A stretch of DNA of 62,811 bases, the filler included, from Sluysia triapertura (taxonomy: Eukaryota), in the NCBI GenBank assembly GCA_046118255.1. It is 4 parts of 4 records of this genome, joined end to end, with 100 filler letters (N's around TTAATTAATTAA, not from the genome) between each part and the next. Parts side by side here need not be neighbours in the genome. Positions count along the whole stretch, not along the records: positions 47,035 to 62,811 come from JBJNIA010219358.1; 3 more parts are not named here. One strand, written 5' to 3'. Shown here one piece after another: positions 31,585 to 59,507 of the stretch. Below the pieces are notes generated by a model, which ran no database searches, had not been told where the DNA came from, and saw only the letters and a list, made by a program, of their open reading frames with translations. Position 1 is the stretch's first letter; each line of letters begins with the position of its first letter. The translations under genes were made by a program, and so were the position numbers.

Positions 31585-31654
31585 GTTAATATTTTTATTT
31601 TAAATTGTCTACTTATAATTGAAAATAAATTACATTTTATAATTTTCATTTCAG

Positions 31655-31784: not shown

Positions 31785-33558
31785 GTTCGTTTTTTTGAAA
31801 TTAATTCAATTTACCGACTGTTTGACATTGAAGATGTATTAATTAAATTTCGTCTGTAAATTTATCCTTTGTGAAAGTAGAAATTTATCTTTATACCAAA
31901 TTTTATTTTTCACAATGTAATCGAAATTAATTAGAAATTCACATTTCTTTATAAATTTTGATAAATAAATCTTGAATAAAAATTTTTTGGATAAAGTTTT
32001 CATTCATCGGTATTTGTTATTGTAGTATGTTGCATTCGATACAAAACTATTCATACATGGTGGAANNNNNNNNNNNNNNNNNNNNNNNNNNNNNNNNNNN
32101 NNNNNNNNNTTAATTAATTAANNNNNNNNNNNNNNNNNNNNNNNNNNNNNNNNNNNNNNNNNNNNGTATTTGCAATTTCTTTTTATTTTCTTAAGGTAAT
32201 TTTAAAATTTTTAATTCAATTTTTAGCTGCAATTACATGATTCATTATTTCGATATCAATTTCTTTCATACTCATCTTAAATTTTGTTATTGTTTTAGTA
32301 TTAATTTGAAAGTAAACGTGAAAATTTGAATGGTTCTGAAGAAATTTTGATTTGTTAGATATGATCCCAAAAATATTATTTAGAAGATAATTCAGAAATT
32401 GTATTTCATCATACTACTCATGAGTTACTTGCATAAAACTTACGAAATTTAACTGATTACAAAAACAAACGATTAAAATATCAGTCTTTGGATCATAAAT
32501 GAATGATTTACAAATTGCCAATTTTTTAACTTACTCATTCACAGCTTTTTTAATATCTTTTTCAATATTGGAAAAATTAAAATAACTGGTTGCTTAGAAA
32601 TCAATAATTTTGATTGACTTTTAATATAAGTTACAGACCTTTATGTCTTATTTAGAGATTTTCATTGAAATAAGCAACTAATAAAATGCTCATCGAGTGA
32701 GAGAAATAGAGCTAAAAGATAATTAAGAAATGGTTAGAAATTGGATTCTTTTTGTGTTGAATTTATACAGGTTTATTTTAGTGTTGTTGAACCTTGAAGA
32801 ATTATTGGATGTAAATTGTAAACTCCTTTCGTCAAGTGATTTATAGAGGAAGAACTGATCATATTTTAGGCTGAAAATGTTAGAAAGTAGAGTAGTTTTT
32901 GACATATACATATACTATTTGATCTTTGCAATAAACATAGTCACATAATCATACACTAGCTCATTTGTAGTTTGATTTGTCATAAATTAAAGAAAAAACG
33001 CCTTTGAAAGGCAGTTAATTAAACGTTGACAAAATATTAAAACAATTATTAGTCTATTTTTAGAATATTAAATAGTTCACTTTCTCAAAAAGAAAAAAGC
33101 TCAAATTTAATAATATCAGCTTAAAACCAATTAGAGATAGTTCACTACTTATATATAGTATTAATTTTCCAATCAAATATTTCCTGTCTATAATATGAAA
33201 TTACAATATAATTTCAATCTAAGTAAGATAAGAAGATGATACTTATCATATAATTTGTATTTTTTCTATACTTTGCTCTATCGTAGTTTGCATTTTGAAT
33301 TTGAAATTAGATACTGTCAATTTTGTTTGGTAGTTTTATATATTTAAATAATATTTTTTCTTATTTTTGTTTTAATTTTTACTATGTAAATATAAAAAAT
33401 GAAAGGACAAAATTTTTGTTTTGTTTTTTACTTAGTATTTAATAAGTATAAATGAAATATTAGTTGGGATATAGATAGGGCCGGTTACGAGTCGATTTAG
33501 CTTAATCAGATCCACGTCCGTATCCGAAGTGCAATCAATTAGTAAAATTACGTAATTA

Positions 33559-33670
33559 ATAATAATAATATATTAATTTATATTGTGCTCATATCTACTG
33601 CGAAAGTACTCAAAAGCGCTTAAGGTAAATCATTCACCATACTATTTTTGAAACAGAAAGAACTGTGCTT
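33559..33670 (-). mobile_element. Second copy of the L2-type LINE 3' end
   Basis: The reverse complement matches about 16490-16590 (TTTCTGTTTCA..GTGAATGATTT..TTAAGCGCTTTTGAGTACTT..GCAGTA..ATATGAGC..ATATAAATTAATATATTATTATTA). Confidence 0.85.
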
Positions 33671-36516: not shown

Positions 36517-36739
36517 AGACAAACCAGTAGATTTAGTACATTGTTTCATGTGTGATTTTGTGTGTTACAACAATACTGAATTGATTAATCATTTACAAGG
36601 TAATTGGCCTAATTCTGTTACTAAATGTGGATTATGTAATCTTGTATTATCATTGGACAAGAAAAATTCTTGTGCTGCTAAAGCTCATGTTTTGTTACAC
36701 ATGGGAATTTATTTAATGTGTCCACGTTGTGGATTTGTT
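36517..36739 (+). CDS. ZNF532/592/687-like C2H2 zinc-finger gene, exon
   Basis: tttag|..|gttagt; HCFMCDF..LINHL..KCGLCNLVL..NSCAAKAHVLLH...MCPRCG resembles the family motif [21 protein letters not shown]..CPECG. Confidence 0.85.
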
Positions 36740-39700
36740 GTTAGTTTTGAGTTTAAGAAATTATGAGGTAGAATTTCTGATAATTATTTAAGATGTCTGT
36801 ACTATTACTAATACATTGTTAAAACTAATTCAACAAAATTATTAACCTCTATTTCTTTATTTGTATTTATAATATAAATAAGTAAATTTATGAGTAATGC
36901 TTTATATATTAGTTTAAATTTCAATTTTAACTTAATTTTATTTGAACAATGAAAATCAGTAAACAAAACTCAACTAAATTATTTATATTTTATAATGTAA
37001 CCTATTGTATAATGTTACATTTATGAATTTTATTCCAATTCTTTATTAAAATTTTGAAAATCTGAAATTAAGCCAGAAAATAATATTATTTAACAGACTT
37101 TATATATTAATGTAACGAATAAGATGTTACATCTTATGTATATAATTTTTACAATAACTATATTTTAAATTTTGTACTGCTGTGAGATGTAAAATAATTT
37201 TTACTTTTTTAATGTTAAATCATCTCAGTAATCTTGAATGTCAAAATTAAAAAATATGATAGAAAACAAAAAGAATACACGAAATACAGATGCGAAAAAT
37301 CCCATAATTCGATTAATACTTAAATAAACAAATAAATACTAGCAAACACAGAAAATGCGTGAATTAATGTAAATTCTAATGTAAGCAAACAAAGATGATA
37401 AATAAAATTAATAACTTCCTGACTAAATTAAGAATTTTTAAGAAAAAATGTGATTTTTTCACATACTTAAATTATACGTTGTATCTTTTCTATTAAAAAA
37501 TAATCTTCCTTATCGACTTTAAACAGAAGTATTTTTAATTTCGCATTATGTATTACTGACAGTTTATAAAATAACGTGATTCAATATGGTATCAAAATCT
37601 ATCAAAGAATTAAATAATATATAGATCGTTATTAATAGATCGTAATTAGTTATAGAAAGTGATTGGCTATGTAATCGAATTAAGTATGGGGTGAAATTAA
37701 CTATAGAATGGAATTGATATTAATATATCAGCTAAAATAATTTTTCTATTCCTTAAATTGTATTATAAGTTTTGTTAAACTTTTTGTTATTTGAATGCAT
37801 AAATTTTCAGTTAATCTAGTTACTTTTGAGTTAAAGGAGAAAATAAGACTGCACTTCCATCTCTTACACCAGAGATGAGTGAACAGTAACCTCCTGTGTA
37901 TTATATTTAGTGTTAGAATATTAGTAGAACACTCTAAACAAGATAAATTTAAGTTTAGCTTTAGTACGCATAAAGACATTTAATAAATAAACCTAACATT
38001 ATAACACGATATATGTTATTAATTGATTTTGATTTCAGTTTAATGTCACATTTAAATTATTCTAATTTTTTATATTGCAGTTTGAACATTTTAACTTTGT
38101 TTAAGTCTAATAATGTATGACCAATGTAACTTGTCCGTTAAGGATATACAATTTCTTGATCAAGAATTTCTTTATCAGCAATTTTCATTGCTTTCTAAAA
38201 AGTTAACTTTGAATTACGATCAAGCCGTCTTAATGATATTATTTTTTTATGATTTTATATTGTCTTACCGTACACTGCATTATTTTTAAATTTTAAAATG
38301 ATTTTTCAAATTCATTTATTGCTTGTTTACGTTTTTCTGAATTATAAATTATACAGTTCTCCAACACATGCCTGACTGAATTTTATTTACAGTAGTACTA
38401 ATTGTAGATACAATTATAATGCACGCCAATGTACAAATAATTTAGTTTGGCTACATACTTTTGAATTGGTTTGGTGTTTTCGTTTGGGTGCTAGGGTTAA
38501 ACCATTTAGATTGTTGTCACTATGAGGTGATATGACTAAATCAACTTCAAAAGCACACCCAATACTAATATTTACAGTATTTACATACATCCATTCTGAG
38601 TTAATATGAAGAAAGTTTGAGGCAACGCCAACTCAGATAAATTATTAACATCTCATCTACTATCACATAATTTATGCAAACAAAAGTTATTCCAGCTGAC
38701 AAACTAAACATTTTTATGTTTACTTTATTGTTTTAATTACTTTAGAGCTAATTCCAAACGTAAATCTTGCAATTATAAAAAATTTAATGGGACCTAATTT
38801 TGTGATTTGAAGGTTTGATCGTTTGAGGTTGGTGGTTTCGGATATCCACCTTCTGACAATGAGTTGTAATAGTGTAATGTAGTTACATGGTTTAAGTTAC
38901 GCAAACACCTTATTTGTCGTAAACTATCGAACGATGACGAATTTATGTAACACGATGGAAGAGAAAAAAGACCTATTGCAACTTACTTTATTAATTGTCT
39001 CAAAATATCCAACAAAGATTTAGCGTGGAGGCCATAATTTGAAGAAAAGGATTGTGATTATAAAAAAGAAAATAAGTTTGTTCGTTAAGAGGCAATTTTA
39101 TATCGTTAATGATTGTAAAAATTACATTAATACAAAAATTTCACTCGGTAGTTTACTGCATAAAAAGGTATTGATTTCGCATGTTACATTAATCCTCAAT
39201 TTTAAATTTCTAGCTAAATTCGTGGGTTCAAATTTTGTCTTTTCATAAGTTATATGAAAATTTAATTCAATCTTAAAATCGTTTATCATCCCGACATTAA
39301 AATTATTAAAACTTATTACTTTATAATGCTATATTTTAAAACTGAATGAATAGAATCTAACTCTGGGGCAAAAATAATCACTAGTAGTCTTGATTATGTA
39401 CAACAAATTTAATCAAAGAATATACATATTTAGTTACCTGCTTAGTTAATGCATCATGCGCATTGGAATCAGATAATCTTGCGATAATTTAACTATATTT
39501 TGGGATCCAATTGAATTTTAATTTCTTTCAGCGAAGACTTTTATTCATTTAGTTTATTCGGAAATTTTATTTCATTCGATTTTCGTGACTAATATAATGA
39601 CTAAAGTCTGTTAATTATTAGTACCAAAATCTCATTTTTCACGAAATTTATTATATGTACTCCTACATAATGTATAGTTAATGGATTATTATTTTTTGTT

Positions 39701-40679
39701 AATGTTGGTTTTGATTCATTTGATTTTGTGATTAAAAAGAAGTTAAATTTATATTACCGTATTTGGTCGTGTATAAAATAATATACAGCATTTAATTTCT
39801 AATATCATGAAAAATAAGTTGTGTTTTTCATTTACATTAATTATACTAATTAAGTGTAACAAATAATTTCCACCTTTTGTTTAAATATTACATTAAACAA
39901 ACTATTGTATTAATGAAGATGATGAAATGAATTTTTGACGATGATGTGCCATTATGCGTTTGTTATGTTTGAAATGTTTTCAAAAGAACTTGAATAAACT
40001 TTTTAAATAAACACTCTAGATTTATCGTAACAATAATTTTATTAAGTATTGGTGTTACAAAATAAATTATAATTATTGTTACATTTACATAAATTAAAGA
40101 TGCACCCTATTTATATATGTAAAAATTGAATTACTTGATTGACTATTCATATATTTCTTTGCGTTTGGATTCAATAATTCATTTTTTATTTTTTTAAAAT
40201 GTGGCGTTTATTTATGAAATTTCTTTCAGATTTTCAACAATTTCACATTAAAATAAAATAAAAGATCAATAATAATCTACTTAAGTTGGACATATGTAGA
40301 ATACTTCGTCATGCAACTTATATTCATTTTTATTTTCCCTAAAACCCATGTTTTTTTATATTGTACAAGTAAATGTATTTGATAATTAATGTTACACAGA
40401 AACTATCATGACTATTAATATTTATAATAAACAATATGTAAATTTATTTTTGTGACTAATAATAAATCGTAATTATTTTTACTTGCAAACTATTTACAAA
40501 TTATAATATGTGATTTATTTTTATGACAAATAACAAAACATAATGACAAACATTTTATATATGTACAATGACTGCTGCTATGATGACGATAAATACTTAC
40601 TATTATTTGGTGTTTTTTAAACTTTAACGTAACATATAAAGATATTTTCAACTATCATATGATTAAAGTCAACATCTAA

Positions 40680-41096
40680 ATTTTTGGCGCCCCAAATTAT
40701 TATCACGCGCTCCTTAGTTTGCGCACATTTGATCTATAGAATCAATTAAATTTTAATGTGATTTCTTGCTGCAGTTGGTATGTCGATCAGTAAAGTTTCA
40801 TAAATCTAATCCGAAGCTTCAGGTACTGAGAAATCAGCGTCTATTTCATTAGATCCACATTTTTCGTCTTCCGATGTAGAAGTTTCATAATCACTTCATT
40901 TTTTATATTGATAAAAAATATCGTAAAAATATTTGAAGATATAATTTCTTGAAAATTTCATAAAAATATAATATAAATTGATAAATTTGAAAATTAACTA
41001 TATTAATTGTCAAATTTAATATTTATCGCAAAAAATTATTTTTTACTGAATGTTTTCTTAGTGGTCAGTTGATCACTAAACTCGTTCTAGGATTAA
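40680..41096 (-). mobile_element. piggyBac-like 5' end remnant
   Basis: The minus strand reads TTAA|TCCTAGAA (cf. TTAA|CCCTAGAA), with a subterminal palindrome TTAGTGGTCAGTTGATCACTAA, then an acidic degraded ORF (SDYETSTSEDEK..EIDADF). Confidence 0.45.
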
Positions 41097-41198
41097 ACAG
41101 TTACAAAATATTTGTAAATTATTTATAAAAACCATCAGAATTATGTAAATAAATTCACCTATTTTGCTTATTTCTAATGATTTCTATTTTACTTACAG

Positions 41199-41424
41199 CC
41201 ACCACCGGATTTAAATCAACGTGATTATGAAATAACATTACGCTTACATTTGCGGTTCGTGTGCTTTCATTTCAATTGTATTCAAATTTATTCGTGTCCT
41301 CATTGTAATCGTGGTTACAATGCCAGTTCACAAGTAATTCAACATATATATGATGAGCATCTGAAAAACGCATATAATTGCCATTTGTGTACAACAAATG
41401 AAGGTAGTACTACTGATCAGAATG
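41199..41424 (+). CDS. ZNF532/592/687-like zinc-finger gene, exon
   Basis: ttacag|..|gttaat, in phase 0 with the previous exon; PPPDL..LRLHLRFVCFHF...YSCPHCNRGY..VIQHIYDEH..AYNCHLC (cf. HVKENCLHY..YRCIHC..SHIQERH..HKCAFC). Confidence 0.87.
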
Positions 41425-42112
41425 GTTAATTTTAATTTATCTTTTCATATTACAATTTCATCTACTTGTAATAATAATAAATTTAATAAAATTGATTAAA
41501 ATTTTGTTCTATTTGATATTTTGGTAAATTTGGCTTTGACTTCTAAGGCATTGAAATAATTCAATTTCTGATGTGTTAGCAGATAACTGATCAGAGTTTA
41601 TTTACTTGTATAAGCCTGAACTTAACATTAAATGTGCAAACTTAGTATTTATTATTATTTCGTGGTTTTTATTCTACAATTACAATTTCTCCCACGCTTT
41701 CGATTAATGAAATTTCCAAATATATAATAACAAATAAAAATATAATAATTAATAATGATAAAAATGTTAAGTAAATTTTTCTTAATATATTTAAGAAAAA
41801 CCTAATCAATTTAAACTAAATAATATATTAAGAAAGAAGTTGAATTCTTGATTATAATTGTGGTTTGATTCTATAACTTTGATTTTTTCGAAAATTCCCC
41901 AAAGCAATACTAAATTTATCAACTATTTAAGTGTTAACAAAAGTTTTTGTAATTGCTATTGTTGCCATAAAACTGAAATCATCAATTGTACTTCATGAAT
42001 TTATGGGTATTGAAATTTCTATTTTATGTCAGGACATATAGTAAAAATTTATAGTCTGATTCATTAATGCTTAATATGTTATTGTCACATAATTAGTACT
42101 TGATTAGTATTG

Positions 42113-42113
42113 A

Positions 42114-42176
<63 letters not shown>
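42113..42176. repeat. (ATT)n microsatellite
   Basis: Seen directly. Confidence 0.95.
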
Positions 42177-43304
42177 GTTCGCTTTCTAGTTTGGAACATT
42201 TATAAAAATTACATAACAGAAAAGGGTTCGCCTGCGTAACACGATTTATTTTAGAAGGACGCGTTCGCAGGATTTAGTCAACGTAAAAGTTTATCAAAGA
42301 GGGTCACTAAACTTCGCTAATATCTTCAAGAAAACTAGAAATTATTCTTCGCACACTGTTGATAAGGATCACTTACTAATTAAATCTTTCTACGTGTTTA
42401 AATCTACTCTGAAATTCTTCGAGATTATTTTAAATCTTTATCGTTTTATATTATGATGTAATAAACGTAATTTATCTTATGTAATTTATCACTTTATATT
42501 ACAATCGTTTATCCGCAATTATGCACTTAATCTATTGTTGTAGATTACACTTTCTTTTCTACAAAAAATCTCAAAAAGACAAGTGTTTAGTAATTAAAAT
42601 ATAAAATATAATGCTTACAATATATAATTTAAATAAAGATAAATTAATTATAATTAATAAATAATTGCAATAAGGATTTTAATGTCAAGTTTGACCCAGG
42701 AGTAATTCTTGGGTTGAAAAGTTATGATTTTAAGTAATATTTTTAGGCAATAGATCTATGCCTATTATGAATAAGCTTACTTATCAATTGATAATTATGT
42801 CTTCTGGTTTTCCCAAAAAATGGATCTGTATCTGGAGGAGCTTGGAACGATTTTTTCGCCAACAATTAAATGCATATAGTGATTCCGACTCGTAGTTTTC
42901 GAAAGTAAATATATATATTTAATCGACTCTCCAACTAGTTTCTTCGTCGCTCGTTTTTTGAGAATTCTCTAATTATAGCGAGTTAATTATTGTGCGTAAA
43001 GATTTACTTGATAATTCCTTTTATAAGTAAGCTTATTCAAATGACTTTTGACCAATAATTAAATGATTAATTCTTTTAATTTTAATCCAAATATTTATGT
43101 TACCAAGATTATTTTAGTTCATAAAAATTTTTCAGTTAATTACAGAATTTTAAATATTTATGTTTCAAAGGTTATAATTTATTTTCGCTTAATTATAAAA
43201 TGATATAATTTTAATTTTATTTCAGTAAAACTTTTTAATATTTAGTAAAACTTTTTTTAATATTATAAAAATTTTTTTTTAATATTTACAAAATTTTAGT
43301 ATTT

Positions 43305-43500
43305 ACAATTTGTATGTCATCATTTACAACCAATATTTACATATGGTATTGAAGACCATATGATTCGATTACACTTGAAACATCATTTATGTATATTATA
43401 AACAACAATGGACCAAGTAATGATCCCTGAGGAACTCCATGCTTTACATGTACCTCATTTGGCTTCTTATTATTCAATAAAACGTATTGTCTCTTTTACT
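43305..43500 (-). mobile_element. Non-LTR (CR1/L2-group) reverse transcriptase fragment
   Basis: [38 protein letters not shown], then a frameshifted degenerate YADD-like VNDDIQI. Confidence 0.88.
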
Positions 43501-46500
43501 AATAAATTATAACATTTTCATGTAATCTAGGAATTGTCCTGGAATGGAACATGCAACTAATGTCGTCAGTGAAGCCTACCGCATATCAAATATACAGTTT
43601 TCAGAAATCAGAATCGTCTATCGACTTCGTGCCCTGGAGATTGGTTCGTAATCTTAATACTTAAACAAACATTCTTAATTTTAATTTCAGGTCGGTAAAA
43701 CAGAAGCACTTGCTCTTCCAATGTCGTGCACGTTAAATATGATCAATAGAATCGAAGTGTACAGGTTCATTTTACGGGCATCAGTGAACGATTTGTCGTA
43801 CAGTCCTTGGTCGAATATTGTTTGTGTTGATATGCCATAATCTGCCAGCCAGTCTGCTCGGCTTTCTTGCTCGAGTAGCACGTGGTGCAGATTCTATTGG
43901 TGGTCTATTTAATAACTTGAAGCCAATATATATTTTATTTAAAAATAATAAGTTGTACATTATTTGTTTTCGTCTATCTTAGATTATTATTTTCTGAATA
44001 ATCATTAAATTCCTAATTCAATATTAACTCTAAGATAGACAGAAGTTTCTGCATAAGCTAGTTTGTAAATAAGAAGCTAATTGAAAGCAGTACTTTGTGA
44101 GATTTTATTCTACTTACCTTTACCTACCTACTTAATTTCAACAGTTCTATCCTTCATTGTTTTCTGTGTACTTTATTAAAATAAGAACGGGTCATCTTCA
44201 TAAATCTTCTAAATCTTTGTAACTAGACAACAGTAACTAGGTACTATTCAAAATTACATTGTTCAAGGTGGATTTCTTCCTGTCTCATCGAGTCGATCCT
44301 TGTAGAACTTGATGATTTTTTCTGATTTGATAAAAATATATAAAGTTATAGTTCATTATTAATTAAACTTGTGATATCTGCGAAACTCAGTAATAAATTT
44401 CAATAAAAACACATTTTAAAGTTATTAAGGATAAAGAGAAACATAACGGTTATGAGTCATGATATAGAAGAATTATGACGAATCATGATAATAAAATAAG
44501 CATATAAATTATTTGAATCAAGACAAAAGAATGAAAGATACGAAAAGATAACCCTTTATAAGGTTTGTTTGTTGAAGTGTTAAAGTACACTTGTTAATTA
44601 ATTTAATTAAAATTTGTTTAATTTGATAATGAATAATGTTCATGATAAATTAATATTAGATTTAGTATAAAAGATGAGTTTTATTAGTATTTTTAATGAT
44701 GAAGTGTTTCGAAGCACGTCGACGTAGATAAGGTAAAAATTAGTTAATAAAATTTCAAATTTCATAAAAATTCCTTATTGAAATAATTTGAGACCATTCC
44801 CAGTTCATTTTTATTAATCAATGTTTATGTTCGACATTAACTATACATTTCTTAAAATCGTTTCCATAGCGCCGTCTATCTTTATTTTTTAACTAATAAT
44901 GCTTCATTTAAGTTTCAGCCAATCAAATTAATTTCATCAATTTTTAATAACCAATTAACTTTAAAATGCGTTTTTACTTGAAATTTATTACTGAATGTCA
45001 TAGGTGTGTCAAGTTTAATGAATAATGGATATCAGAATTTTAATACTTGTACCAAATTTTTTATTATTATTATTATTATAATTATAATTATTATTATTAT
45101 TTGTGATCTTTCTATAATAAATAACTGAAATATTAATCTTTATGCTTTCAAATTTTCGATTTTGAAGATTGAGCGTGCATTATTGTTTCATGCATCTCGC
45201 TTTCAATTTTATATTTCCAGGTAAACATGAAGTAAATTTTCTGATATAGTAATCTATGAAGCACAAAATATACAAAAATCATTAATTAACTAGATTTTTC
45301 ATGATACCAATAATCTGCCAAGGATTGGATTGAAGAGCATGAGTTGTAAATATCTCATTTTCTAAAGTCTTCTGGAATGTCTCTCTGTGTGTATCAATGA
45401 GGCGTTTTTATTCTGTTATGACTTAGTATCCGACCAAATTCTTTTGGAGGGCAAGAGAATTCATATCTATCGTGTTTATTGGTCTTATTATTTCTGGAAA
45501 TTTTCGTATTGGGTATTGTACCAATCAAAATCTAAGTGAATTTTCAGCAAAACGAATCATTGGAGCAAATATTTCACATTCTTATTTTTTCTTTTTCCGG
45601 ACAAGTCAAAGATAGAAAATGGTCATCTTATGAATGTGACTTGTGCGAGAATGTAAAAGTAAATTATTCGACTGAGAATATTCATGATCCAAGTATATTT
45701 TCTGTCATATCGAAAAGTTTGATATGTGTATTTTCTACTTATAATCATGTCATAACAAAATCATAGTGGGATTGGAACATGTTTCGATGTGTGAAATATG
45801 TAAACGAATTACATTCTAGATTCAAATTTCTACAATTTATTGGATTAGAAAGGTAATTGGTGTGTGTTAAATATTAATATCATTCAATTGAATTCTGTGG
45901 GCATAAAATAAGAGTAATGAAGTTGTGGAATTGGAATAATGCAGGAAGTGCTGATACAAATGTTGGACTGATGGGAAATAACTTGGAGTTCCAAGGACTA
46001 TTGTAAGGTATTGAGATCCTTAGAAAACTATTTGAAGAATTAAAGTGCCCTTGAAATTGTGGACCATGAAATAAGTAGAGATATTTGAGTAATCTTGAGT
46101 AATTAATTTAAAATGTTAATATTAATAATTATAATGATGATGATTCTTATAGTAATATAAAATAAAACTACAAAAGATTTGTAAATGTAAATATAAAAAT
46201 TATTGATGAAAACACCCGATTGCGTAACAATATATTGCATAACATTTGAATTTTACTAATTTTGGAAAAGAATTCATTTTTGATTTGGGAAGCAAAAGAA
46301 ATAGTATGCACTACGGAATTATGTTTAATATGTTGATGCAACAGATAAACTTATTTTACTTTGTATTTGATGGATTATATTCATACTCCTTGTATAAAAT
46401 TATTTTTGTTCTAGGTTTGAAATAAACACGAGCACAAATAATAATCCGAAAAAGCAAAATTTGAACTATAGGATTATCCAATAATTTCTTTGCTTTTGTG

Positions 46501-48349
46501 AGAATTGATCCACGATAAACAACGATTGAAATATATAAAATTAATATTAAGAAAGACATTTAATAATAATAATAATCTGTTAATTCTCGTTGATTACCGA
46601 AATAAAGATAATAAAAAACTATTGTTTTTCGATTCGTTATATTATTGGAAATAATTATGAATTACTTGGAAAATGACTATTTGGTTCAACCTAAAAATTC
46701 AAGATTTTGAAATGTTCGTTATATTATAACATTTTTATTGAGTTATGAAATTAAATTAAATTAATTAACAAATGTACTTTAATATTTTAACAGATAAAAC
46801 CTTGTGTAAAGGCTTATTTCTTCGTATTTCTCATTATTTAATCTTGATTTAAATATTTTATATTGTTGGGGTAAAAGGCCTAAAAAGTGCCAAGTAGTAT
46901 AATTGAATATATTGAAAATGAAAAAGTTAGACGGNNNNNNNNNNNNNNNNNNNNNNNNNNNNNNNNNNNNNNNNNNNNTTAATTAATTAANNNNNNNNNN
47001 NNNNNNNNNNNNNNNNNNNNNNNNNNNNNNNNNNATACCTTATCTTAGTTTTTTAATAACGCTCTACTTATCATATTATTCCAAGTTTTGACCCTTATAT
47101 CAACCCTTATCCTTCACTAATCCCAACATGTAGATATAAACATTATTTTACTTTAATATAAAGATAAGCACAAATACCTAACTTTTAATACAAGAAATAG
47201 TTAGACCTGTTTAGAAGTAAGTACCTCAGACGATTATTCACAAATCCATACAAGGAAAACTTTAAGCAAATTCAAATTTAATTAATTTTATAAACCAAAA
47301 CATTACTATATCTATATTTAGAATAATATAATGAGAAGAAACCAAATATAAGTTTAAGAGTTGTTGTGTCTTTGATTTTATGTTACATTGTTTGTTATTA
47401 AATTTAACGTAAATTAAATTATGAACGTTCTTTGAGATATTTATTGCTGTAATTAAACTTAATTTTAAAAATTCTAATTTAATTTCTTTTTTTAACAATT
47501 TTACAGAATAAAGAGATGTATATATATTTATATATATGTACATAAAAATTTGACAATTTTTAATAATTTTTAGATTGTGTAATTACATCATTTATATATA
47601 TATATATATATATAAATGATCTAATTACACAATCTAAAAAATATTAAAAATTGTCAAATTTTGGATCATATTAATTACACCATCAACGTTTAGACATATT
47701 ATGATTCTTCTCAATTGCGGTTTCCTTAAATAAAAAGAACAAAAATCATATGTTAGTTTATAATAAAAATTTAAAATTACTTTAAATCCTGGTTCATTAA
47801 AATGAATGTAAAATATGATTTTGTTCAAGGCTTGCGTTTGAATTTTGCTGATTTGTAGGTTACGATTGATCATGTTGTTTTGTAAAGACGTGAGCAGACT
47901 ATTCAAGCGTTCCTTGAACTATCATAGCTCATCTCCAAAACATTATGAGAATAGTGGCATCAAACTTGATAGATGTCCCGAATTTGTCTACTCGGGATGG
48001 ACATTGTGTATATGAACATTTAGACTTGAATTGATGGTATTAGACTTAACATATTAGCTTTCACGGTATGTTGACTCGGCAGTTGTATTATGTGGGTATT
48101 TGACTTCGTTCCCTTTAATCATATTCTTTTATGATAGTAGGTATTGTGCAGATAAATTTTGTTGAAACATAACTGATGATAAACTAAAACGAAGATTTTT
48201 AAAAACACGATTAAAGATGAATTCTATTATATCAACTTTATCAATAGCATGATAACAACGATACGATTCTTTGTAATCGCTGAATTGTATATTTGGCATG
48301 ATTTGAATATATTTTACATCATTAAATTTTAGTTTAAAGTTAATATCTT

Positions 48350-48860
48350 CACGATTTTGATAAGTTATTAGCATCAAGATTGCCATTTTGAACAACATTT
48401 ATAAACTTTCATTTTGAACGAAATTAAGTTAGTGCAATTTTGTTTACGATAAAATGAAAATGTTCAGGAACAGAATTATTTAGAATAGTAAACTTATCTT
48501 TTTAATACATCGACTTTATTAACCACACGAATAGAAGGTATATCTGAACGATGTTGTCTCAATTCTTTGTACCGATTATCCAGAATTTTGTAAGAAACTT
48601 TTCATGTAAGATGAAACGCCAAGGAATAATACGATGTATGTACATGACGATAACACGAGGTATGCATACTTTGAAAAAGTTCTTGAACAGCTGGATCGTA
48701 GAAATTAATCGTTGTCTTTTTACTACCTAAATCAGTTTCATATTTAAATAAGGTTAGAGCATAAGCAGATAATTGTTGTGGTTGACATTTGTCCATCAAA
48801 AACTGTTCAACTAATATAAACTTTTGAACCACATATCCTGGACAAATTGTTTTCACACTA
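48350..48860 (-). pseudogene. RABL2: Intronless degraded RABL2 (Rab-like 2 GTPase) copy
   Basis: VKTICPG..LVEQFLMDKCQPQQLSAYALTLFKY..INFYDPAVQELFQSMHTSCY..*KVSYKILDNRYKELRQHRSDIPSIRVVNKVD versus RABL2 KIICLG..LMERFLMDGFQPQQLSTYALTLYKH..VDFWDTAGQERFQSMHASYY..KVTYRNLSTWYTELREFRPEIPCIVVANKID. P-loop and DTAGQ are degenerate and there is an in-frame stop. Confidence 0.88.
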
Positions 48861-49291
48861 ATATAAAATACAGATCTTTAGTGTAATACTCAGGTGGTTC
48901 GGACATCATTGAATGTTAATTTTCAATAAAAATTTTTGATTCTTTTAAATAAATACTAATTTTTAATATTTTTATTAGTAAATAATTATCTAATTTTATT
49001 TTAATTAATTTTTAATGATAACAATTGTCGTCAGAAGAGTTTTTATCAAAAAATGATTGGACGGCCATATGACGAACGGTGACACATCTGATTAATTTAT
49101 GTTGGGTGCATTTCTTAATCTAAAAACCTAACCTATAGCAAAATAATTAATTATTCTGAGTCCATTTACAGTATACGACTCACTAATGGCGTACCTGTAA
49201 AATTACGTGAAAACAATTATCAAAATTAATCGTACAAAAATATTCTTTGCCTTAGCTTAACGGTAATGGGCAAAAACGTCGTTTTGACTTG

Positions 49292-49394
49292 GGTATTCCA
49301 TAAGATAGCGTTGGTCTTAATTAGTTTTTAATTGACTTATTAACAATAAATAACTTAAAAACTAATTAAGACCAACGCTAGCATATGGAATATC
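49292..49394. repeat. Short palindromic MITE-like element
   Basis: Perfect 25-bp inverted repeat TAGCGTTGGTCTTAATTAGTTTTTA (from 49306) / TAAAAACTAATTAAGACCAACGCTA (to 49380), extended by TATTCCATA/TATGGAATA. Confidence 0.8.
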
Positions 49395-51254
49395 TAAATT
49401 AATATAAAAATCTAGTGAATAATATTCGTATAAAAACGTGTCGTCTCTTATAACTTCAAATCTTAATATAATGACCGTTAGCACTTTTTAGTTTTTTTCT
49501 TTTAAATTCAATGAAACAATATTGGAATTAACGTCTTTACAATGAAAAATATATTAAAGTTTAAATATTAAGACAAATATAGTAAAAAACAAGGCTTAAA
49601 AATGCTCTAATATTTTTATTGTACAAAACTAAAATAAAAATGACAGTTATTATAAATTTAAAAAAAATTCAATAAAAAACTATTGTCAAAAAACACAAAA
49701 TTTTATGAATAATAAATTTATAATAACAATAATAATGAAGCTATAATAAGGGTTTAGCCAAAAGACTCTACCCTACAATACTGATTTTATAATTGACCTT
49801 AAGGGCCAAGTAAAGATTTGAGATTTTATATTTTAGTTTGATTTTATGATTAGCCTTAATGATCAACCTTGCAAAACAGTATTTTAAGTTGAATTTTTAA
49901 CTCAATGAGAGTTTATAGACTTATGCAAATCAAACTTACGGATCAATTAATAATATGGACAGTCCATATTCAGTAATATGGTTTGTATTTGAATTGATTT
50001 GTTGAACTGCTACTGCTTGAAAAGTGCTATCCCTCTTATCGAATACGCGGGAATCGCACAATGACTTGAATAGTGGATTTGAAATAATAATTTAACAATG
50101 AATATAACAGTGGTGCCGCCAAAAATCTTTTATCGAAATGCTGAATTTCAAAATGTCGCAATTATTTTCTGTCTATTTTTAATGGCTTCTTTATTTGCTA
50201 ATGTCTTTATATATGTACAAACAAATCTCTTAACATTTATTTGATTTGTTTAAGTGTAATTAAACCAACTCCAACATGTTATTGAAATCGACTTACGACG
50301 TATTATATAAAAGATTTCTATGAAAACAAATTTAGTATTTCATTAATTTATCTTTATTTTAAGTTGATAAGTTGTGTTAATAACAAAATATTAATTTTGA
50401 TTTAATTATGTTGAAAAGATAAGGAGATTGTTTAACACAAATCCCATTATCCTTGGGTAATTTCAGGAGAGAATAAAATTGGAAACAGACGGAAATTACT
50501 ATCGAAATTTAATTATTAAAATTGGTGGGCTTATAACCGACTAAAAGGAATGAATAGTCTAATAAGTAATTATTTCCGTATTTTCCACTTTCCAATTTTC
50601 AAGCGATTACCAAACTGCTATATAAACAATCAGATTTCTGGATAAAAAGATTTCTGGACTTTACAAAACCTTACAAAACTTTACAAGACTTTACAAGACG
50701 CTGCCTCAATATATTTGTGATAAACATTGTGTTTCAGGACTCATCTTTAGCAATTGATTAAAATTTAAAAAGAGTGGTTTTGTTTTTGTTAAGGTTAGTA
50801 ACCTACAGTTTTATTTTATTATTGTTAATAATAGGCGTCAATATTTATTGTGTTGCGTCACCCATGGAATTCTATAGATAGTGATTTATAGCTTTAAATT
50901 TCAGTTATTAATTGAAGGCATATTATTGTAAAAGAATAATTGCTAGATTATTGTGCTAGTTAAAAATGTACTGAGATTTCGTGTTAATTCTATTATTGAT
51001 TTATAATAGAACATTTTTTGATGCTTACACAACAAATTCTAAGTAATCAAAAGAAAATGAGTTTGCATTCATCATAATCCAAAATTATTCATAGCCTTTA
51101 TATTTTCAATAACAAATAATTTACATTTCTTTGATGTTATAAAAAGATAATAATATAAAATAAAATATGAAAAAATGCAAGTTTTATTAAATATGAACAA
51201 TTGTGAAGTTCTATAGTTATTTAGCATGAATATAGTAATTAAATTATTTACATT

Positions 51255-51281
51255 ATTATTATTATTTTACTATTATTATTA

Positions 51282-51318
<37 letters not shown>
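51255..51318. repeat. (ATT)n microsatellite
   Basis: Seen directly. Confidence 0.9.
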
Positions 51319-51319
<1 letters not shown>

Positions 51320-51574
51320 GTTGGGATTGCCGTGTAGTGAAACAAGAAATTAATTTAAAAATGCAAGAGGTACTGTGTAAAATGATGAAACATTTTGGAG
51401 TAAGAATGATGAAAATAAAAACATTTATGAATTTTCCAATATTGTGTTCGACAGCTTTTGATATAAAAAATAGCCGTGTCATTTCCTAACAAACTACAGA
51501 TTTCTTCACACTTTCTTATCAATTCCATATTGTACATGTATAACATGTTTATAAATGTCAATATGATCGAAAAT

Positions 51575-52330
51575 GTTTACATTAAAATTACTATTTGACA
51601 ATAAAGAGACATCCATACTTTTAAATGTGCTATATTATGATGTTTTGAATCATAAATTGGATTCATAAATTCTTCTTTATTGTGATTAAAGAAGTCCCAA
51701 ACTGATAATGTGTTTTCTAAAATTAACTTTGATTCAACTCTGTACTTTTCACAGTTTCCGACGAACGTTCCATCTTTGAAACATCCTCAGTAATTTTTCA
51801 TTATATTCGAAATGGACTAGATAAGTGCTCATAAGTTGATATAAACAGTCAAGAAATTGAATAAACACCGGAGCTACTTCAAATGAATTTGAATTCATAT
51901 ATAATTGTCCACATGTGTCCCCAATTTTATGTCCGAATAATCACCAGTCTTCTAATCTTCTAATCCTTTAAAAGTTCACGAATAAGGATTGATTATAACT
52001 TGCGCTAATGCATAACGTGAGATATTCGATCCCAACAACCACTGCAGTGAACCAACACATTTTCTCACATATATATCCAAAATCATTTTTAAATAATATA
52101 GTCATCCACTTTTTCAATAACTGTTATATATTGTGGATAAATTAAATATAAATTGCGACAATCTTGTATAAATTTTCAAGCTACTTCTCATAACATGAAT
52201 ATTTTCAACATCGAAAAACTTCAAATCAATATCTTCATAAACATCAGCAGTTTCAAATCCTGTTCCTTTAGCTTTATTCGTAATTAAGTTAATTATTGGT
52301 CAAGTGTAGATTGTAGTGTTCAATTCATCC
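51575..52330 (-). pseudogene. Intronless degraded myotubularin phosphatase (MTMR6/7/8-like) copy
   Basis: NKAKGTGFETADVYEDIDLKFFDVENIHVMRSSLK; EKSG*LYYLKMILD; ENVLVHCSGCWDRIS (degenerate HCSDGWDRT, 52026-52053); FGHKIGDTCGQL; EVAPVFIQFLDCLYQL; FEYNEKLL; GTFVGNCEKYR. Several frameshifts; missed by the ORF track. Confidence 0.92.
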
Positions 52331-53619
52331 ACGAACCATAAAAAAACTCAACTACAAATATTCCATACGCAGTACAACCTTACCACATCTTTTACACATG
52401 ATAACATCTAAAATATAACATACTTTAAACATATATTAAATATAATCTAATATATTTAGATTACAATAATTAATCATAATAGCATTAACTTTAATCCGCC
52501 GATATTGCCTCTCTCATTTGCATCAACATTGTGTTAATTATCACAATATTAAACAATATTAGATAATAATAATATATAATTATCACTTGTTATATGTGTT
52601 AAATGACTAATTTTATACTAAATTCAATAATTGTAACTAATTCAATTCACTTTGATGACAATTCAATTCACTTTGATGACTAATTGTAACTAATTCATCA
52701 CACATAATTGATTAATTACTATACTAATCTATAAATATATATATTATTGATTAATTGTTATTGATTTTTTGAAATTATTTTTATCTGACTAAATTTATTT
52801 ATTAACTTTATCTGGAAATAATGTATGAATTTATTTATTAATTTTATCTGGAAAATTCTAAAGTATGTTTTATTAATTATTTTATTAAATTTTTATTTCT
52901 AACTTTTAATATTAATTATTAACTTTTAATATTAATTATTATTTTAATCAAACGTGATTATTTTCGAAATATTTTGTTTTAATCTGATCTTTCAAGGTCA
53001 GATTAAAACTACTATAAAAACAAGCTTAATTTTCATAATTTACACATAATTTTTAAAGAAAAAGATTTCATAATTTGTTTACAAGTTTTCAATATTTGGT
53101 GAAGTTGTTAATTTCAAAAGGACCAATCTATTAAAAAAGGAAAAAATCACGTTAGATAATTATTATTAAGACAAGATATTATTATAATATCGTTTGCAAC
53201 ATTTATACTTAAACTCATTGAATAAATCTGGACCATTTATTATTATCATTTTTATTTCACATATCTTTATTATTTTTATTATTATTAAATTTTGTTTCTA
53301 ACCACTACAACCTGCCATCAATTGAGAGTTTTTAATTTAATTTAGTACACATAATTTTGTGAATGCAAATTGATGACAGTTGTTCAATCAGAGTTTAACT
53401 GTTTTAGGAGTTGTCATGTTGTAATATGGGTTGTTGTTTGAGATTAAAAACTTTTAAATAGATTTTTACATTTTACGTTTTATTTCTTTATAATCTTTAT
53501 GGTTTAAATATACTTTATCACATTTAATTCTTCGAAAATATCGTTTAACTTTGGTTGAATAAATAAAAAGATCACTATTTATTATATTTATAATATTTTA
53601 AATTTGATTAACAGATAAT

Positions 53620-55270
53620 TTTAAAGTCCATTTATAGAGAATAACCTCTTCGAATTCAAAATTTTCAAGTTTCTAAATAACAATAAAGGATGATAAAACT
53701 CAATTATAAGAACGTAAATACGGTAAGAAATAATAATTACCTTTAAGTTATGAAAATTTTTATCGTGAAGAGTTTTTCGTTCAAATTTTAAATCAATTGA
53801 TGAATTCTTTGTTTATGATCTGTTAAGTATGACACAAACGAAATTTTCCGACAATTCAGTTCCGAACCTTGTACAATTTCCATCTAAATTCGTAGTATGA
53901 AGACACCAACCAGACTTAAAGTGAAGTATCTCTCGTCCAAAACTTATTGTCTTATTTGAGTTCTGATAGTACATGTGTGGGTCTGAGCGATGTTATCATT
54001 TAAGAATAATCTTCAGTGAATATACTGTCATTTACCGGAAATTTTAATGGCTTCAAAATTTTAATTTCTTTAATTTTAAAAATTTGGAAGAGCCAATTTG
54101 GCATATTTATAAACGATTGTATAGAATTGGTTCTTTATTTACGCATACAATGAAGTCATCTTGTAAATTATTTAATGTAAAGTCAGAATCACGTTTATCC
54201 AATACATAACGCAAAATAACTAAATCATTATCACTGCACTTAAAACGATTGTAACTAATTTCTACTTCATTCTCATCTTCACTAATCCATCCTAAGAAGA
54301 TAGCGTTATGAATATCATAATTCTGTAAACTTTTAATAGGCTCACAAAATTGTTTTCTCTTAGTTTCAAAATTATTTTTTATTAAAAAAGTATAAGAACA
54401 CAAATTTACTTTAAACATTAGTCGTAATATAAGACATTCATGCTTATATTTAATAATTTTACTTACTTATACCCAAATACGTTCAATACTATTATTTAGA
54501 CTATGGGCATTTAGCTTGGTATAAGATACAACTTCTTTTATGAGTGATTTGGATTGTTCCGAAGTTATTAAGTGATCTTCTTAAAATTATTTCCAACAAA
54601 ACGGATAATATTAATTTCTAAATCTTTAATGTCGCCGAAGTGATCGTAATTAAAAATATCTTCATATAAATTGAAAGATTAATAGTTAGAACACGTATCT
54701 CGTCATTTATTTTAATATCTTTTGTAAATTCATCTTGTGTACTGTGGCCATCAGTTATAGAATCAAATAGTAACGTGGTTATTTCAAAATCATCTTTATC
54801 ATTAATCTTTTAGGTCATTGTAATGTGTGATTCAAGGATTAACATGCGACATATTAACTCTGTTCGAGCTTTCGATCTAAACATTATATTTCTTGATAAA
54901 TAAGTGCCATTCAATGTTTTTTGTAAATAATTTTTATTAATTAAAAAAAGTCAGTATACTCTATTGTGATTGACGTGTTACTTATGTTATAAAATATTGT
55001 TATTAAAAGAAGTTTTATACTAGATTATAAATATTGGTAAATTAGGATGATGTGTTTTATATCTGTTTGTATAATGCCAATTGTGATATTAAATTAGGAT
55101 TTGATTATTTTAAAGAGATATGGGCTTGTTCTTCACAAAATTAATTATCTTCAGATAATTGTCAGGCAATCTAAAGTCGGAAATTCATTGGAAATTAATA
55201 TTAAAATTCCATTTTAGTAATGGGTCGGCATAAAACCAACTCTAAGAAAATAGCATGTATAGTAGACATG
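53620..55270 (-). pseudogene. Degraded large type I membrane glycoprotein-like ORF
   Basis: Signal-like start MSTIHAIFLELVLC (about 55270), about 1.6 kb of coding-like sequence including ORF 54107-54418 and Cys-rich GWCLHTTNLDGNCTRFG..FVCV, and a hydrophobic end. No introns. Confidence 0.4.
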
Positions 55271-57348
55271 CAAAATAATTAAATTGAATTCCAGACTATC
55301 TGCTAATTTTTACATAAAATCACAATAAAAATCCAAAAAAAACGTCAACAGTAACAGTTGACAAATTAGTCAAGCACTTCTTGCTATAGGGACGCTGGGT
55401 TCAATTGAGTTGTGGATAATGCTCATTAAATGTTTTTCTTCAGCAATAAGTTTATGTGGTTAGTATAGAGTTAAGATTCATTTTGTTTTTATTATTATTT
55501 TATATTTTATTTTATACACAACATTTATGTTGTGTAACTAATGCGATATTTAATGAGTTTGACAATAATTTATTAAAGAATTTGATTAACTATATAAAAG
55601 TTTGATTTATATAACTGTAATTGTAATATAAAGAATTGTCATATAAAGATGTGATTTGTATAACTGTTATATAAGAATACATCGAGATTTAGTTTTATTT
55701 GTTATTATGTAAAGTGATCGGCTGAACCACCACAATATTATTTCAAGATAACAAAGAAACAATTGAAAATATTAAAGAATATTGAGCTTTTACCTTTCAA
55801 TTGTGTTGATGTTTTTTGAAATTTATTATGATCAAGAGAAAACTCATTTTAAAAATAACAAAAATAATTTGCAAAATTTAATGAAAATCAGAATATATTT
55901 TTATCTTAATTTCACATAAAGTATTAATGGCATTATTAAATTTCTTTAAATGATTGAAGCTTTAATAAAATTTTCATTTCATAAGACACGTATATTTGTT
56001 TTAATATGTTAATCTTATATTCTAAATGTACGATCAAAGTTAAAAAATTGCAAGAATAATCTATAAAATTGCCTTTTTTAACGTAGATTAACATATTTTA
56101 AATATAAAAATAAGTTTTGATTATTATTGAATACCATATGCTATAAGTAAAATATATGTCTATGGAATTGTGGATAGAATAGTATTTGCACACTGATCAG
56201 TCGACTATAAATCACATCTGTATGTTATATTATCGATTATTTCTGCGTTTTACAGTTTTTAGGCCAATACTATTTTCATATACATATTAATCTACCAACT
56301 ATTGTTGTATTAATAAATAAAAATACATTTATTAATTGATTTTAGTGTTGTTTGTACGTAATAAAGATCAGATAATAAAATATAAAAAAATTATTTTAAA
56401 TTATGGAAATTTATAATTATTATCAGATTTTATAATAATGTATTTTGTTAACATTTCCATTTCCTGATTAATTTCCTTATTTATCATACTCTAAATCCGG
56501 CCTTAAACCAAACAAAACATTAATGTTAACATACTTATTGTAATCTTTTCTGTAATATTATCTTTTGTGCACTGAATGTTACAAAAAAGTAAAATATACT
56601 GTCTCGTCAATTAATTATATTTTAAGTTTAAATTAAGAATATTTTATCTAATAAAAATGGACATTATTATTTTATTTGTAAAATTGTAAACAAAAGTGTT
56701 GCATTAATTTACTTTCAAAATTTTATTGCAAATAAGTTTATGCTAAACGTTTATCTCTAAAATTGCATTAGATACTTTTTATCCTGTTAATTAATTAAGT
56801 TATAATTAGTCTTGTGGTGGCCAACCTATGACTTAACAAATTTTATTAAAGTTTTTCTTTATAACACTGCAAAATCAAATTCACTTTCAAAACTTACAAT
56901 GTACATTTTAAGAACTCTTTAAAAACATTTTTTCACATAGTCTTATATCAGCATAATCAAAATCACCCGCATGGTTTTCAATGCATTCATATTTTTTTGG
57001 TAGACGGAAGGTAAGTAAGATTAATTACTAAGAACTTTAATAAGAATGTTAAAGTTTATAAATCTAATTATAATATTACGGATTTATAAAGTATTAATGT
57101 GTAAAGGTGTATAAAATTATTATATTTTTGAATATCAAAAAATGATTGTAAAAATTATTAAAATTACTATTATTTAAAAAATCCTAATAATAATTAAATT
57201 AAAATTAAAATTAGTAATTAATTTTTTTAAAAGTAAACTAAAGGAATGTGCGAGTACAGAGAATTGTTTTATTAAAGTAATTTTTTAAAATATGTCTTTA
57301 TGAATATATAAAGAACACAAAGAAGAAAAAGCCATATTACTTTACCAG

Positions 57349-57609
57349 AAACCTTATTTCATTTGTCAGCAGTTCAATTAATTCGTTATTTTGGTAATTC
57401 AATCCAGTCGTCATCAGAAAAGTTATTAAGTCATTTACATCTTATTTCTGGTGCTCCAGCAGTTCTCAAATTCGTCAACCATCCAACAGCATTATATCCC
57501 GCGTCTACGATAAAAGAGAATACAACTTCCAGTTATCAACAAGCCAAGCAATCAAATTATTTGGGAAAAACAATTCTAGAGCTCGAACACTCTTTTGTTA
57601 ATAAAATTT
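57349..57609 (+). CDS. Internal coding exon, probably the next exon of the zinc-finger gene
   Basis: ttactttaccag| 261 bp open |gtaagt; phase 1-1, compatible with the exon ending at 41424 (..DQN-E-TLFHLSAVQL..). Confidence 0.7.
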
Positions 57610-59507
57610 GTAAGTTTGTTTTGTATAATTTGAACACTCAATGTGAGTTAAAATATCCACGTAAAATATCAAATTTTCGGTTGGTCATTAAGATCAATCA
57701 TAAAATCACTTTAAATTCTAAATTCATAGCTTTTTAGTTGGCACTTAAAGGCAATTATAAAATACTTATCAATAGGTAGAGTCTTCGGGCTAACCTTTTA
57801 TTATAAATCATTAAATCTTATTATTATACTTTTAATATTTACAAAATTTGAATTATTAGTACTTTTCTTTTTATCTTTATAAATTCACCAATGTATTATT
57901 TTAATTTATTCAATTTATTCAAATTGTCGTACAATAAAAATTGGATAGTGTGAAGTTTTTGTTTATGAGAATTTTGTGTTAAATTCGTGAATATAAGTCG
58001 AACTTACATTTTTTATATTGTAGGAAATTTAAAAAATTATATAGGTTATTATTAGTGGAAATAAGTGAATTACAGTTTAAACTCTCTAACATATTAAGTA
58101 ATTGAAGTTAAGCTTAAGAAATAAAATAATATGTTTTTATATAAATATTGTCGATCTTAATCTTATATTAACTTAAATATTGTATATTCCAACGTTGGTC
58201 GTGATTATTTTTTAAGTTATTTAGTGTCAGACTATTTTGTCCATTATTGTTTAAATTAACTTTTAGAATTGTTTTCACGTAATTTTACAGGTACGCCATT
58301 AGTAAGTCGTATAATGTAAAGGACTCTGAATAATAATAATTTATTTTACTGTAAGTTAGGCTCTTTATTAAGAAAAACTCAGCAAATTTTAAAGAAAATT
58401 AATGAAATAATCAATTTTAAAATTTTATAATCACATTTTGTATAATAATAGTGAAAGATAAGTTTAATTATCTGCAAATGATTTTCTAATAGTGGAAAGT
58501 AGTTATATTAATATAATAAAATATAAGAAAACGGCATTATATATAATTTTTAAATTACAATTTTTTTACACTTATCAAGCAATAATATCTCTAAAAAAAT
58601 TGCACTTAAAGTATATTTATCTTTTTAAATGCCACTATTTAAATAAAAGAGATTTATTTGCAGATAATTTATGCAGTAAAGAAATAGAAAATGGTTTTTA
58701 TTTCTTGATTTTAATTTTTTATTAAATATTTTAGTGTCTTTATTTTATATAGATGTTTTATTAATTTTTAAATTAATTATTATTAACAAATAAATAATAT
58801 AATTTTCTTATAAACCGTTTTAACATTTTGCATTAAAAAGTTAGTATTTTAGTATTTTTATAAATAGTTTTATTGTAATATAAATAGAATGTTGTAAAAT
58901 TATTTAATAATTTAATAACTCATTAGAATTCATTTTAATTCCATTTAAACATTCGATTTTCTTCAAAAACAATTATTCAACTTTGTTTAAATTTTCTAAG
59001 TATTCTGTAAGATGAATCAAATTTGAAACAGTAAATTTTTATTTAAATATTTTTTAAAAATTTCTTCAAAAAAATTTATGAATTAAAATATATATATGTA
59101 TTACTTTTATATTACTTAAAATTTTTGCATTATATTTTCCAATTATTAAATTATTATTAAATTATTATATATAATAAATTAAAAAAATTAAAAAATATAA
59201 AGAAAAGTCAATTTAAAATTAAACCTTAAAAAAGAAAGTAAAAAATGGAAAAAATTAAAACTTAAAAATAAAAATTTTTCAATAAAAATTGTTTGTTAAT
59301 GAAATGGAAAAAATAAATGATAGAGAACATCTTAATCGAACAAATTAACGTTTCTTCCTGAGCCGCGTTCATTCATGCAAATATAATGAATAAGGCAAAA
59401 TGGAAAAAATGAAATATATATGTACACGGAAAAATAAAATAAAAACAAAAACTGTAGTAAATTCACTTCAGAAAAAATTGAGTAATGAATTTGGAAAAGT
59501 AGTATTA

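Follow-up and report, generated by a model that had tools for sequence, protein, structure and literature searches.

The window analyzed here is a stretch of 62,811 nucleotides (filler included) from Sluysia triapertura, and between positions 51509 and 52344, on the minus strand, it contains a dead internal fragment of a myotubularin of the MTMR6/7/8 type (core, 52299–51634). The fragment comprises the second half of the phosphatase domain and the start of the tail, and both of its ends are cut. An earlier note, made from the sequence alone, had placed the catalytic half of an MTMR6/7/8-like phosphatase at this site and on this strand, and Pfam, PDB, and alignment results all agree with that identification. 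The Pfam family PF06602 was matched above its curated cut-off in two of the three minus-strand frames (E = 2.6e-9 and 2.1e-13), and the top PDB matches were MTMR8 (E = 5e-19) and MTMR6 (E = 7e-19), with MTMR2 and MTMR1 ranking below them. When 1.84 billion representatives were searched for homologues, 448 matches were obtained at E <= 0.001, and the top match among the 150 listed was MTMR6/7/8 of the trematode Paragonimus westermani (KAA3679601.1). A frameshift-aware alignment to residues 170–408 of this protein shows 99 of 221 residues identical and corresponds to the core; the extension of the fragment to about 52344 and 51509 rests on weaker matches.

The copy contains four in-frame stops (at 52114, 52102, 51976, and 51941) and four frameshifts (near 52062, 52012, 51956, and 51772), and three of the ten positions of the VHCSDGWDRT motif are altered, with no open frame. 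In the available text of bioRxiv 10.1101/2022.07.27.501705, this motif is the mark of active myotubularins, and MTM1 loses its activity when the glycine of the motif is changed. The stops, the frameshifts, and the altered catalytic motif show that the copy is dead and that no phosphatase is made from it today. It had been described as intron-free and as invisible to an ORF track, and both descriptions are borne out: the only insertions on the window side relative to Paragonimus are two single codons, and the longest stop-free pieces are 61–69 codons long. The PH-GRAM domain, the first part of the phosphatase domain, and the FYVE tail of flatworm proteins gave no signal above control level; for PH-GRAM, the N-terminal parts of three relatives scored 33–34 against 52300–55400, compared with 27–36 for controls.

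We placed the copy in a tree of 67 rows, using a quick IQ-TREE search with SH-aLRT support and a support mark of 95. Apart from the window copy, the rows were the 45 proteins with the best scores among 146 that were usable, and every fifth of those left. The copy falls inside a clade of 30 rows that holds named MTMR6/7/8 members (SH-aLRT 96 in this quick tree). The R6 group of myotubularins is defined in PMC2927912, the main text of which contains no word starting with virus, transpos, or pseudogene. The sister of the copy is a trematode and cestode group made up of Paragonimus, Mesocestoides, and Taenia, and this sisterhood (SH-aLRT 88, under the 95 mark) suggests a flatworm-like host for the copy. 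The branch leading to the copy has a length of 1.21 and would owe its length to neutral hits at slow sites.

To judge from the amount of change, the copy has probably decayed without constraint. It is changed at 12 of 46 columns that are invariant in 18 intact proteins (95% interval, 14%–41%); in a leave-one-out comparison, intact proteins differ at 2–3 of 58–59 near-invariant columns. A rough mutation model at its 10% setting gives 25% of residues changed and 4.8 stops per 230 codons, compared with the four stops observed. Intact metazoan rows are 47%–61% identical to Paragonimus; these values less one quarter give 35%–46%, and the 45% identity of the copy falls inside that range. Because 45% fits the neutral expectation, extra divergence in an element-borne lineage is not needed, and neutral decay of roughly 10% in a host-like copy appears to account for the divergence of the myotubularin.

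The absence of introns points to an RNA intermediate. At two places in the aligned region, one of two Mesocestoides gene models reads through 14 residues that the other does not have, and the Taenia protein has an insertion at the first of these places, which we take to be intron borders. The copy passes both of these putative borders without a gap. Host exons called within the window are about 110–280 bp long, and the fragment spans about 800 bp. The gapless crossing of the two borders, together with the short host exons, makes a spliced-RNA (cDNA) step behind the copy likely.

The earlier note had held that a unique processed pseudogene, with polyA, a target-site duplication, and neutral divergence from the host gene, would speak against a captured phosphatase. 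The neutral divergence is there, with no excess over about 10% decay; a complete 3′ end with an A-rich tail is not, as the last third of the coding sequence is gone, and the repeats flanking the copy are at chance level. An (AAT)n tract at 51252–51319, A-rich on the minus strand, lies 330 nt beyond the end of the phosphatase domain and is among six tracts of at least 10 perfect units in the window. The tail past the domain end is 205–242 residues long in five flatworm rows, as against 330 nt before the tract in the window, and no FYVE remnant was found between the domain end and the tract. The longest exact direct repeats flanking the copy are 10 and 8 bp, which were matched by 41% and 99.7% of controls, respectively. 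Decay of 10% could hide a target duplication of the copy's own.

The myotubularin copy is probably enclosed in a 9,285-bp unit (49100–58384) with inverted arms, TG...CA ends, and a possible flanking duplication that agrees at five of six bases. Self-comparison of the window revealed three nested inverted blocks that flank the copy. The outer pair (49111–49230 with 58255–58375; blastn E = 4e-31) lies within the cores of the terminal inverted repeats (TIRs). The left core (49100–49230, plus strand) is 131 bp long, starts with TG, and agrees at 112 of 127 aligned bases with the right core (58255–58384, minus strand), which ends with CA on the plus strand. The left subterminal block (49294–49437) contains a 99-bp palindrome (49294–49392), and its segment 49343–49437 is found inverted in the right subterminal block (58133–58227), with mismatches to the left arm at 22 of 95 positions. 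The inner pair joins 49698–49939 with 57610–57849 (E = 5e-30). Local alignment of the two arms gave a score of 527, compared with a maximum of 152 in 20 block shuffles. Inward of the outer 330 bp, identity is 57%–74% per 100 bp, compared with 65%–70% outside the arms; the inner similarity consists of two related gene remnants (A′ and A″, below) and near-noise alignment of AT-rich DNA.

The possible 6-bp target-site duplication consists of 49094–49099 and 58385–58390, both on the plus strand. Of 5000 random end pairs, 3.9% satisfy the same end and flank test, and the choice of ends followed inspection of the alignment. An earlier scan for a duplication, limited to exact 6–8-mers, gave one match, compared with 5.2 expected by chance. 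The candidate family terminus TGTTGGG occurs at six sites, compared with 1.9 expected (maximum of five in 30 simulations), and one of these sites falls within the myotubularin copy itself. Mismatches between the arms amount to 15 of 127 (12%), 22 of 95 (23%), and 56 of 236 (24%) positions in the three blocks, and the mismatch expected under the decay setting used for the myotubularin is 0.18 (95% range, 0.12–0.25). These values are compatible with a single age for the arms and the myotubularin, within wide limits.

Searches of all frames of 47600–58500, Pfam among them, detected no transposase, integrase, polymerase, gag, capsid, or envelope, and Pfam, PDB, and plasmid searches detected no integrase-like DDE transposase in decayed frames. 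There is no direct LTR pair around the unit; a 166-bp match between remnants A and A′ is the one direct repeat that the region contains. In a search of sequencing runs, a single run was listed, containing 0.57 of the words, and no RNA run was.

The unit also contains three related, decayed remnants. Remnant A (53620–55270, minus strand) is a decayed gene with a 119-codon open piece; around 53858–53920 it gave a weak match to zf-CCCH_UNK, an Unkempt-type family (E = 0.0036, below the curated cut-off), and Unkempt was matched in the PDB at E = 0.27. Remnant A′ (49750–50550, minus strand) reads outward, and its 3′ part is the inner block of the left arm. At the DNA level, its segment 50388–50550 matches the 5′ end of A (55086–55249; E = 2e-7), and the A/A′ score of 133.5 compares with a control maximum of 58.5; when A was compared with the 3′ part of A′, 433 of 2000 shuffles scored as high, which is not significant. 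Remnant A″ (57251–57849, plus strand) reads outward in the right arm and holds a 141-codon ORF (57312–57737). Compared at the protein level with the middle of A, it scored 56, a value reached by 1 of 2000 shuffles for a pair chosen from some tens, and the score of A′ with A″ was reached by 5 of 2000. Because A′ and A″ make up the inner blocks, the arms hold duplicated, outward-facing genes. When codon positions were tested along the arms, no frame stood out clearly.

Relatives of remnant A were sought widely. Protein-database searches and plasmid tblastn returned no match for it, and an Atlas search returned none for the 119-codon piece or the 141-codon arm ORF. IMG/VR gave eight pattern matches for A, none of them confirmed, and PHROGs and NCBIfam gave weak matches only (best E = 0.0025). 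A single-sequence fold of A had a pLDDT of 40 and no Foldseek match at E <= 0.001. Two candidate readings made by eye, a retroviral integrase core in A and a Gypsy gag/protease in the inward-read arms, found no support in database searches and were dropped.

The earlier note had set the myotubularin directly downstream of two other same-strand remnants. The one at 53620–55270, our remnant A, is indeed coding-like and has two relatives. The other, at 53300–53560, we list (53300–53590, minus strand) as remnant B, a candidate only; its open runs do not exceed about 43 codons, and family searches gave no convincing match. "Directly downstream" proved to be a loose description: about 950 bp lie between, most of which is an AT-rich spacer (52420–53290; 17.7% GC) that contains short tandem repeats.

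The proposed setting, antisense in a host intron, finds no support. The nearest plus-strand host gene, a C2H2 zinc-finger gene (36500–43840), ends in an fn3_4 exon with its stop at 43838–43840, and a gap at 46935–47034 separates it from the myotubularin region. The sole plus-strand candidate in an exon scan to the right of the copy was the ORF inside the right arm. We take the fn3_4 domain of the zinc-finger gene to be an FN3 of the ATF7IP/Windei type. Between this gene and the unit, an inverted pair (44502–44614 with 46748–46863, 81% identical) surrounds decayed coding-like DNA at 45.1–46.2 kb that has no Pfam match, and a third inverted pair joins 44325–44424 with 44956–45057. A LINE reverse-transcriptase fragment (RVT_1, E = 6e-6) is present at 43340–43495.

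Outside the unit, starting about 185 bp beyond its left terminus, is a decayed, near full-length, intron-free Rab-like GTPase gene (48330–48915, minus strand; Pfam Ras, E = 1.4e-8). It corresponds to the RABL2 that the earlier note had reported nearby. A Ras/Rab-family remnant does lie near the unit; its searches gave Ras/Roc in Pfam and Rab30/Sec4 in the PDB (E = 1e-5), and a homologue search with the piece returned no match. The name RABL2 is our presumption. The closeness of this gene to the left terminus gives some reason to suspect that the real unit is larger. Coding-like DNA (48330–47640) follows the Rab-like gene, and there is a 118-bp palindrome at 47545–47662.

A fusogen elsewhere in the window had also been reported, and we confirmed a Monjiviricetes-type fusion glycoprotein remnant at 8589–9416. 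The remnant is broken and extends over 8082–9605 on the plus strand (PF24664, E = 3e-15 for 9069–9416). It lies 40 kb from the unit along the stretch, with three or four host genes and four gaps between them; the intervening sequence includes a KCNQ exon, a multi-exon kinase gene, and the zinc-finger/FN3 gene. Self-searches found no sequence common to the fusogen and the unit. In IMG/VR, the myotubularin, the Rab-like gene, and the fusogen gave 53, 8, and 6 pattern matches, respectively, none of which was confirmed. The idea that the myotubularin belongs to the membrane-trafficking cargo of an enveloped element therefore finds no footing here, with the Rab-like gene outside the unit, the fusogen unlinked, and no viral relative confirmed.

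Decayed pieces of host genes occur elsewhere in the window. A 5′ fragment of RPL23a (22700–22950, plus strand; matched at 22770–22940) lies between exons of the kinase gene, and decayed vigilin KH domains (12064–12553, minus strand), apparently intron-free, lie about 2.5 kb from the glycoprotein on the opposite strand. With these two pieces, such fossils are seen to be common in the window and not confined to trafficking genes. The kinase gene itself (20713–31860, plus strand) has multiple exons and subdomains that look degenerate, and is presumably a KSR-like pseudokinase. The last exon of the KCNQ channel gene (13354–13752, plus strand) is followed by a gene for a cysteine-rich protein with a signal peptide (14023–14330, plus strand), which has no Pfam match and which we take to be Ly6/uPAR-like. 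Segments 4890–5142 and 11251–11501 are inverted and distantly related (about 35% translated identity) and lie within GC-richer decayed coding DNA. Another inverted pair (16455–16600 and 33552–33694, 81% identical) presumably represents LINE 3′ ends. In each of the gaps at 13082–13181, 32066–32165, and 46935–47034, a 12-base AT linker sits between two runs of 44 N, and that at 25582–25794 is a plain gap of 213 N.

A scan of metagenomes returned 547 myotubularin relatives. Among the best 80 of these, 79 match the myotubularin part, and four weak segments (<= 31 bits) match elsewhere in 47600–58500. One metagenomic contig carries a nearly intron-free MTMR6/7/8 gene (positions 5479–7209 of contig L001; 55% GC) in an ordinary eukaryotic context, with neighbors that, read by eye, are ligase-like and LRR-like. 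In the open full-text literature, which leaves out most subscription papers, we found no report of a myotubularin borne by a transposon, an endogenous virus, or a giant virus.

The copy resembles MTMR6/7/8 over the catalytic half and in its place in the R6 clade, and differs from them in the PH-GRAM domain, first part of the phosphatase domain, and FYVE tail that it does not have, and in its disabled frame and motif. In anatomy, the unit is nearest to GingerRoot/IS3EU elements: these have 6-bp duplications, TA...TA or TG...CA ends, TIRs of 100–150 bp, and lengths of 3.9–12.9 kb (available text of PMC6839031 and PMC10045372), and the unit shares the TG...CA ends, a TIR of about 130 bp, the size, and the presence of a host fragment. 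TG...CA is the minority end, seen in 5 of 77 GingerRoot/IS3EU elements in the same texts, and copies that carry fragments keep the DDE region in 6 of 22 cases (available text of PMC6839031). The unit differs from them in that the GingerRoot/IS3EU fragments keep their introns whereas the fragment here is intron-free, in that its arms run inward as duplicated gene remnants, and in that its duplication agrees at five of six bases. We have not filed the unit under GingerRoot/IS3EU because no transposase was found in it to compare and because their fragments keep introns. It is also like animal Pack-TIRs, in which host sequence lies between a TIR pair in an animal genome; the survey of these, in the text available to us, set aside intron-less captures of multi-exon genes as retroduplicates (PMC8277862).

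Two other kinds of element invite comparison. Polinton/Maverick elements share the 6-bp duplication and TIRs (PMC6431247, PMC6839031, and PMC10045372, in part) but have AG...TC ends and are typically 15–25 kb long (PMC6431247 and PMC6839031, in part), compared with the TG...CA ends and 9,285 bp of the unit; the protein-primed polymerase, integrase, ATPase, and protease of Polintons had no Pfam match in six frames of 47600–58500. The giant Gypsy elements of planarians called Burro carry host-like domains and a mononegavirus-type env (available text of PMC6431247), and the window has a glycoprotein remnant, 40 kb off. Burro elements are LTR elements, however, whereas the unit has inverted repeats and no LTR pair, gag, pol, or env, and the domain list given for Burro in the available text of PMC6431247 includes neither myotubularin nor Rab. 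General background on planarian repeats is given in PMC11410931 (available text).

The account that we favor, and hold to be somewhat more probable than all others together, is that the 9,285-bp unit is a fossil non-autonomous TIR transposon that carries a cDNA-derived piece of a host MTMR6/7/8 gene. An internal stretch of spliced MTMR6/7/8 RNA would have been reverse-transcribed and joined into the element, either by template switching or through capture of an earlier retrocopy. The unit, with its three A relatives, two of them in the arms, would then have moved to this site with the help of a transposase supplied in trans. The TG...CA ends and the 6-bp flank are those of the unit itself, and they suggest that this enzyme was probably of the retroviral-integrase type, which leaves such ends and duplications. 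Subsequent decay has affected all parts, at roughly 10% per copy within wide limits. In this account, the myotubularin would probably be a passenger rather than selected cargo. The view that a host phosphatase had been captured by a mobile element is supported by where the copy lies: inverted arms enclose it, the ends are TG...CA, and the 6-bp duplication of the flanks is near-perfect. Capture of a fragment is supported; the enveloped-element theme is not.

A rather unlikely, though still credible, alternative is that an MTMR cDNA landed alone as an independent retroposed fragment, in intergenic DNA rich in junk, either within the inverted-repeat unit or before that unit was there. The other decayed host pieces outside the unit (RPL23a at 22770–22940, vigilin KH domains at 12064–12409, and the Rab-like gene) would fit such an event, as would the LINE reverse-transcriptase remnant at 43340–43495, the A-rich (AAT)n tract downstream of the copy, and a divergence consistent with neutral decay. 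However, the coding sequence breaks off without its 3′ third before that tract, which is itself one of six in the window, the flanking repeats are no longer than in 41% and 99.7% of controls, and the copy has decayed to an extent that agrees with the age of the arms. Capture at the DNA level, in which a single long exon of a host MTMR6/7/8 gene was taken by gap repair as a Pack-TIR/GingerRoot fragment, agrees with the truncation at both ends and with the GingerRoot fragments of 84–1,654 bp taken at the DNA level (PMC6839031, in part); we nevertheless regard it as quite improbable, as host exons in the window are about 110–280 bp long and the fragment of about 800 bp crosses two putative intron borders.

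We consider selection for the phosphatase improbable, if less so than capture of a genomic exon. In this reading, a flatworm family of integrase type not described before (Ginger-, GingerRoot-, or Polinton-like, or a bigger unit that takes in the Rab-like gene) would have kept a trimmed, active PI3P phosphatase together with genes of its own, and the unit would be one of its dead copies. Such a family would have gene-bearing arms of about 1 kb, private A genes, one of them with a zinc finger of the Unkempt type, a once-active phosphatase from spliced host RNA, perhaps the Rab-like gene as well, and intact, selected copies elsewhere. The three A relatives, two within the arms, do look like element-specific genes, the fragment retains the catalytic half, another trafficking gene without introns sits on the same strand 185 bp beyond the unit, and planarian Burro elements, with their host-like domains and mononegavirus-type env (PMC6431247, in part), offer a parallel. 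The fragment lacks PH-GRAM and the beginning of the phosphatase domain, however; the 0.45 identity to Paragonimus is what the 0.47–0.61 of intact rows would become after 25% neutral change; searches of the unit turned up no LTR pair, gag, pol, capsid, or env; and no IMG/VR relative was confirmed. The version in which the family was an enveloped virus is a subset of this reading, with the fusogen unlinked, and we consider it very improbable indeed.

With the unit read as a fossil non-autonomous TIR transposon, the find is a modest one, another fossil of gene-fragment capture by TIR elements in an animal group in which little of the kind has been described. Its uncommon feature is that the captured piece likely passed through spliced RNA. 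Four decayed pieces of host genes lie within 63 kb, and this density may be a property of the genome. The find would weigh more if intact copies of the family exist: the A genes would then form a new family of proteins borne by elements, and the phosphoinositide phosphatase would represent a new way in which selfish DNA acts on the lipids of endosomes and autophagy.
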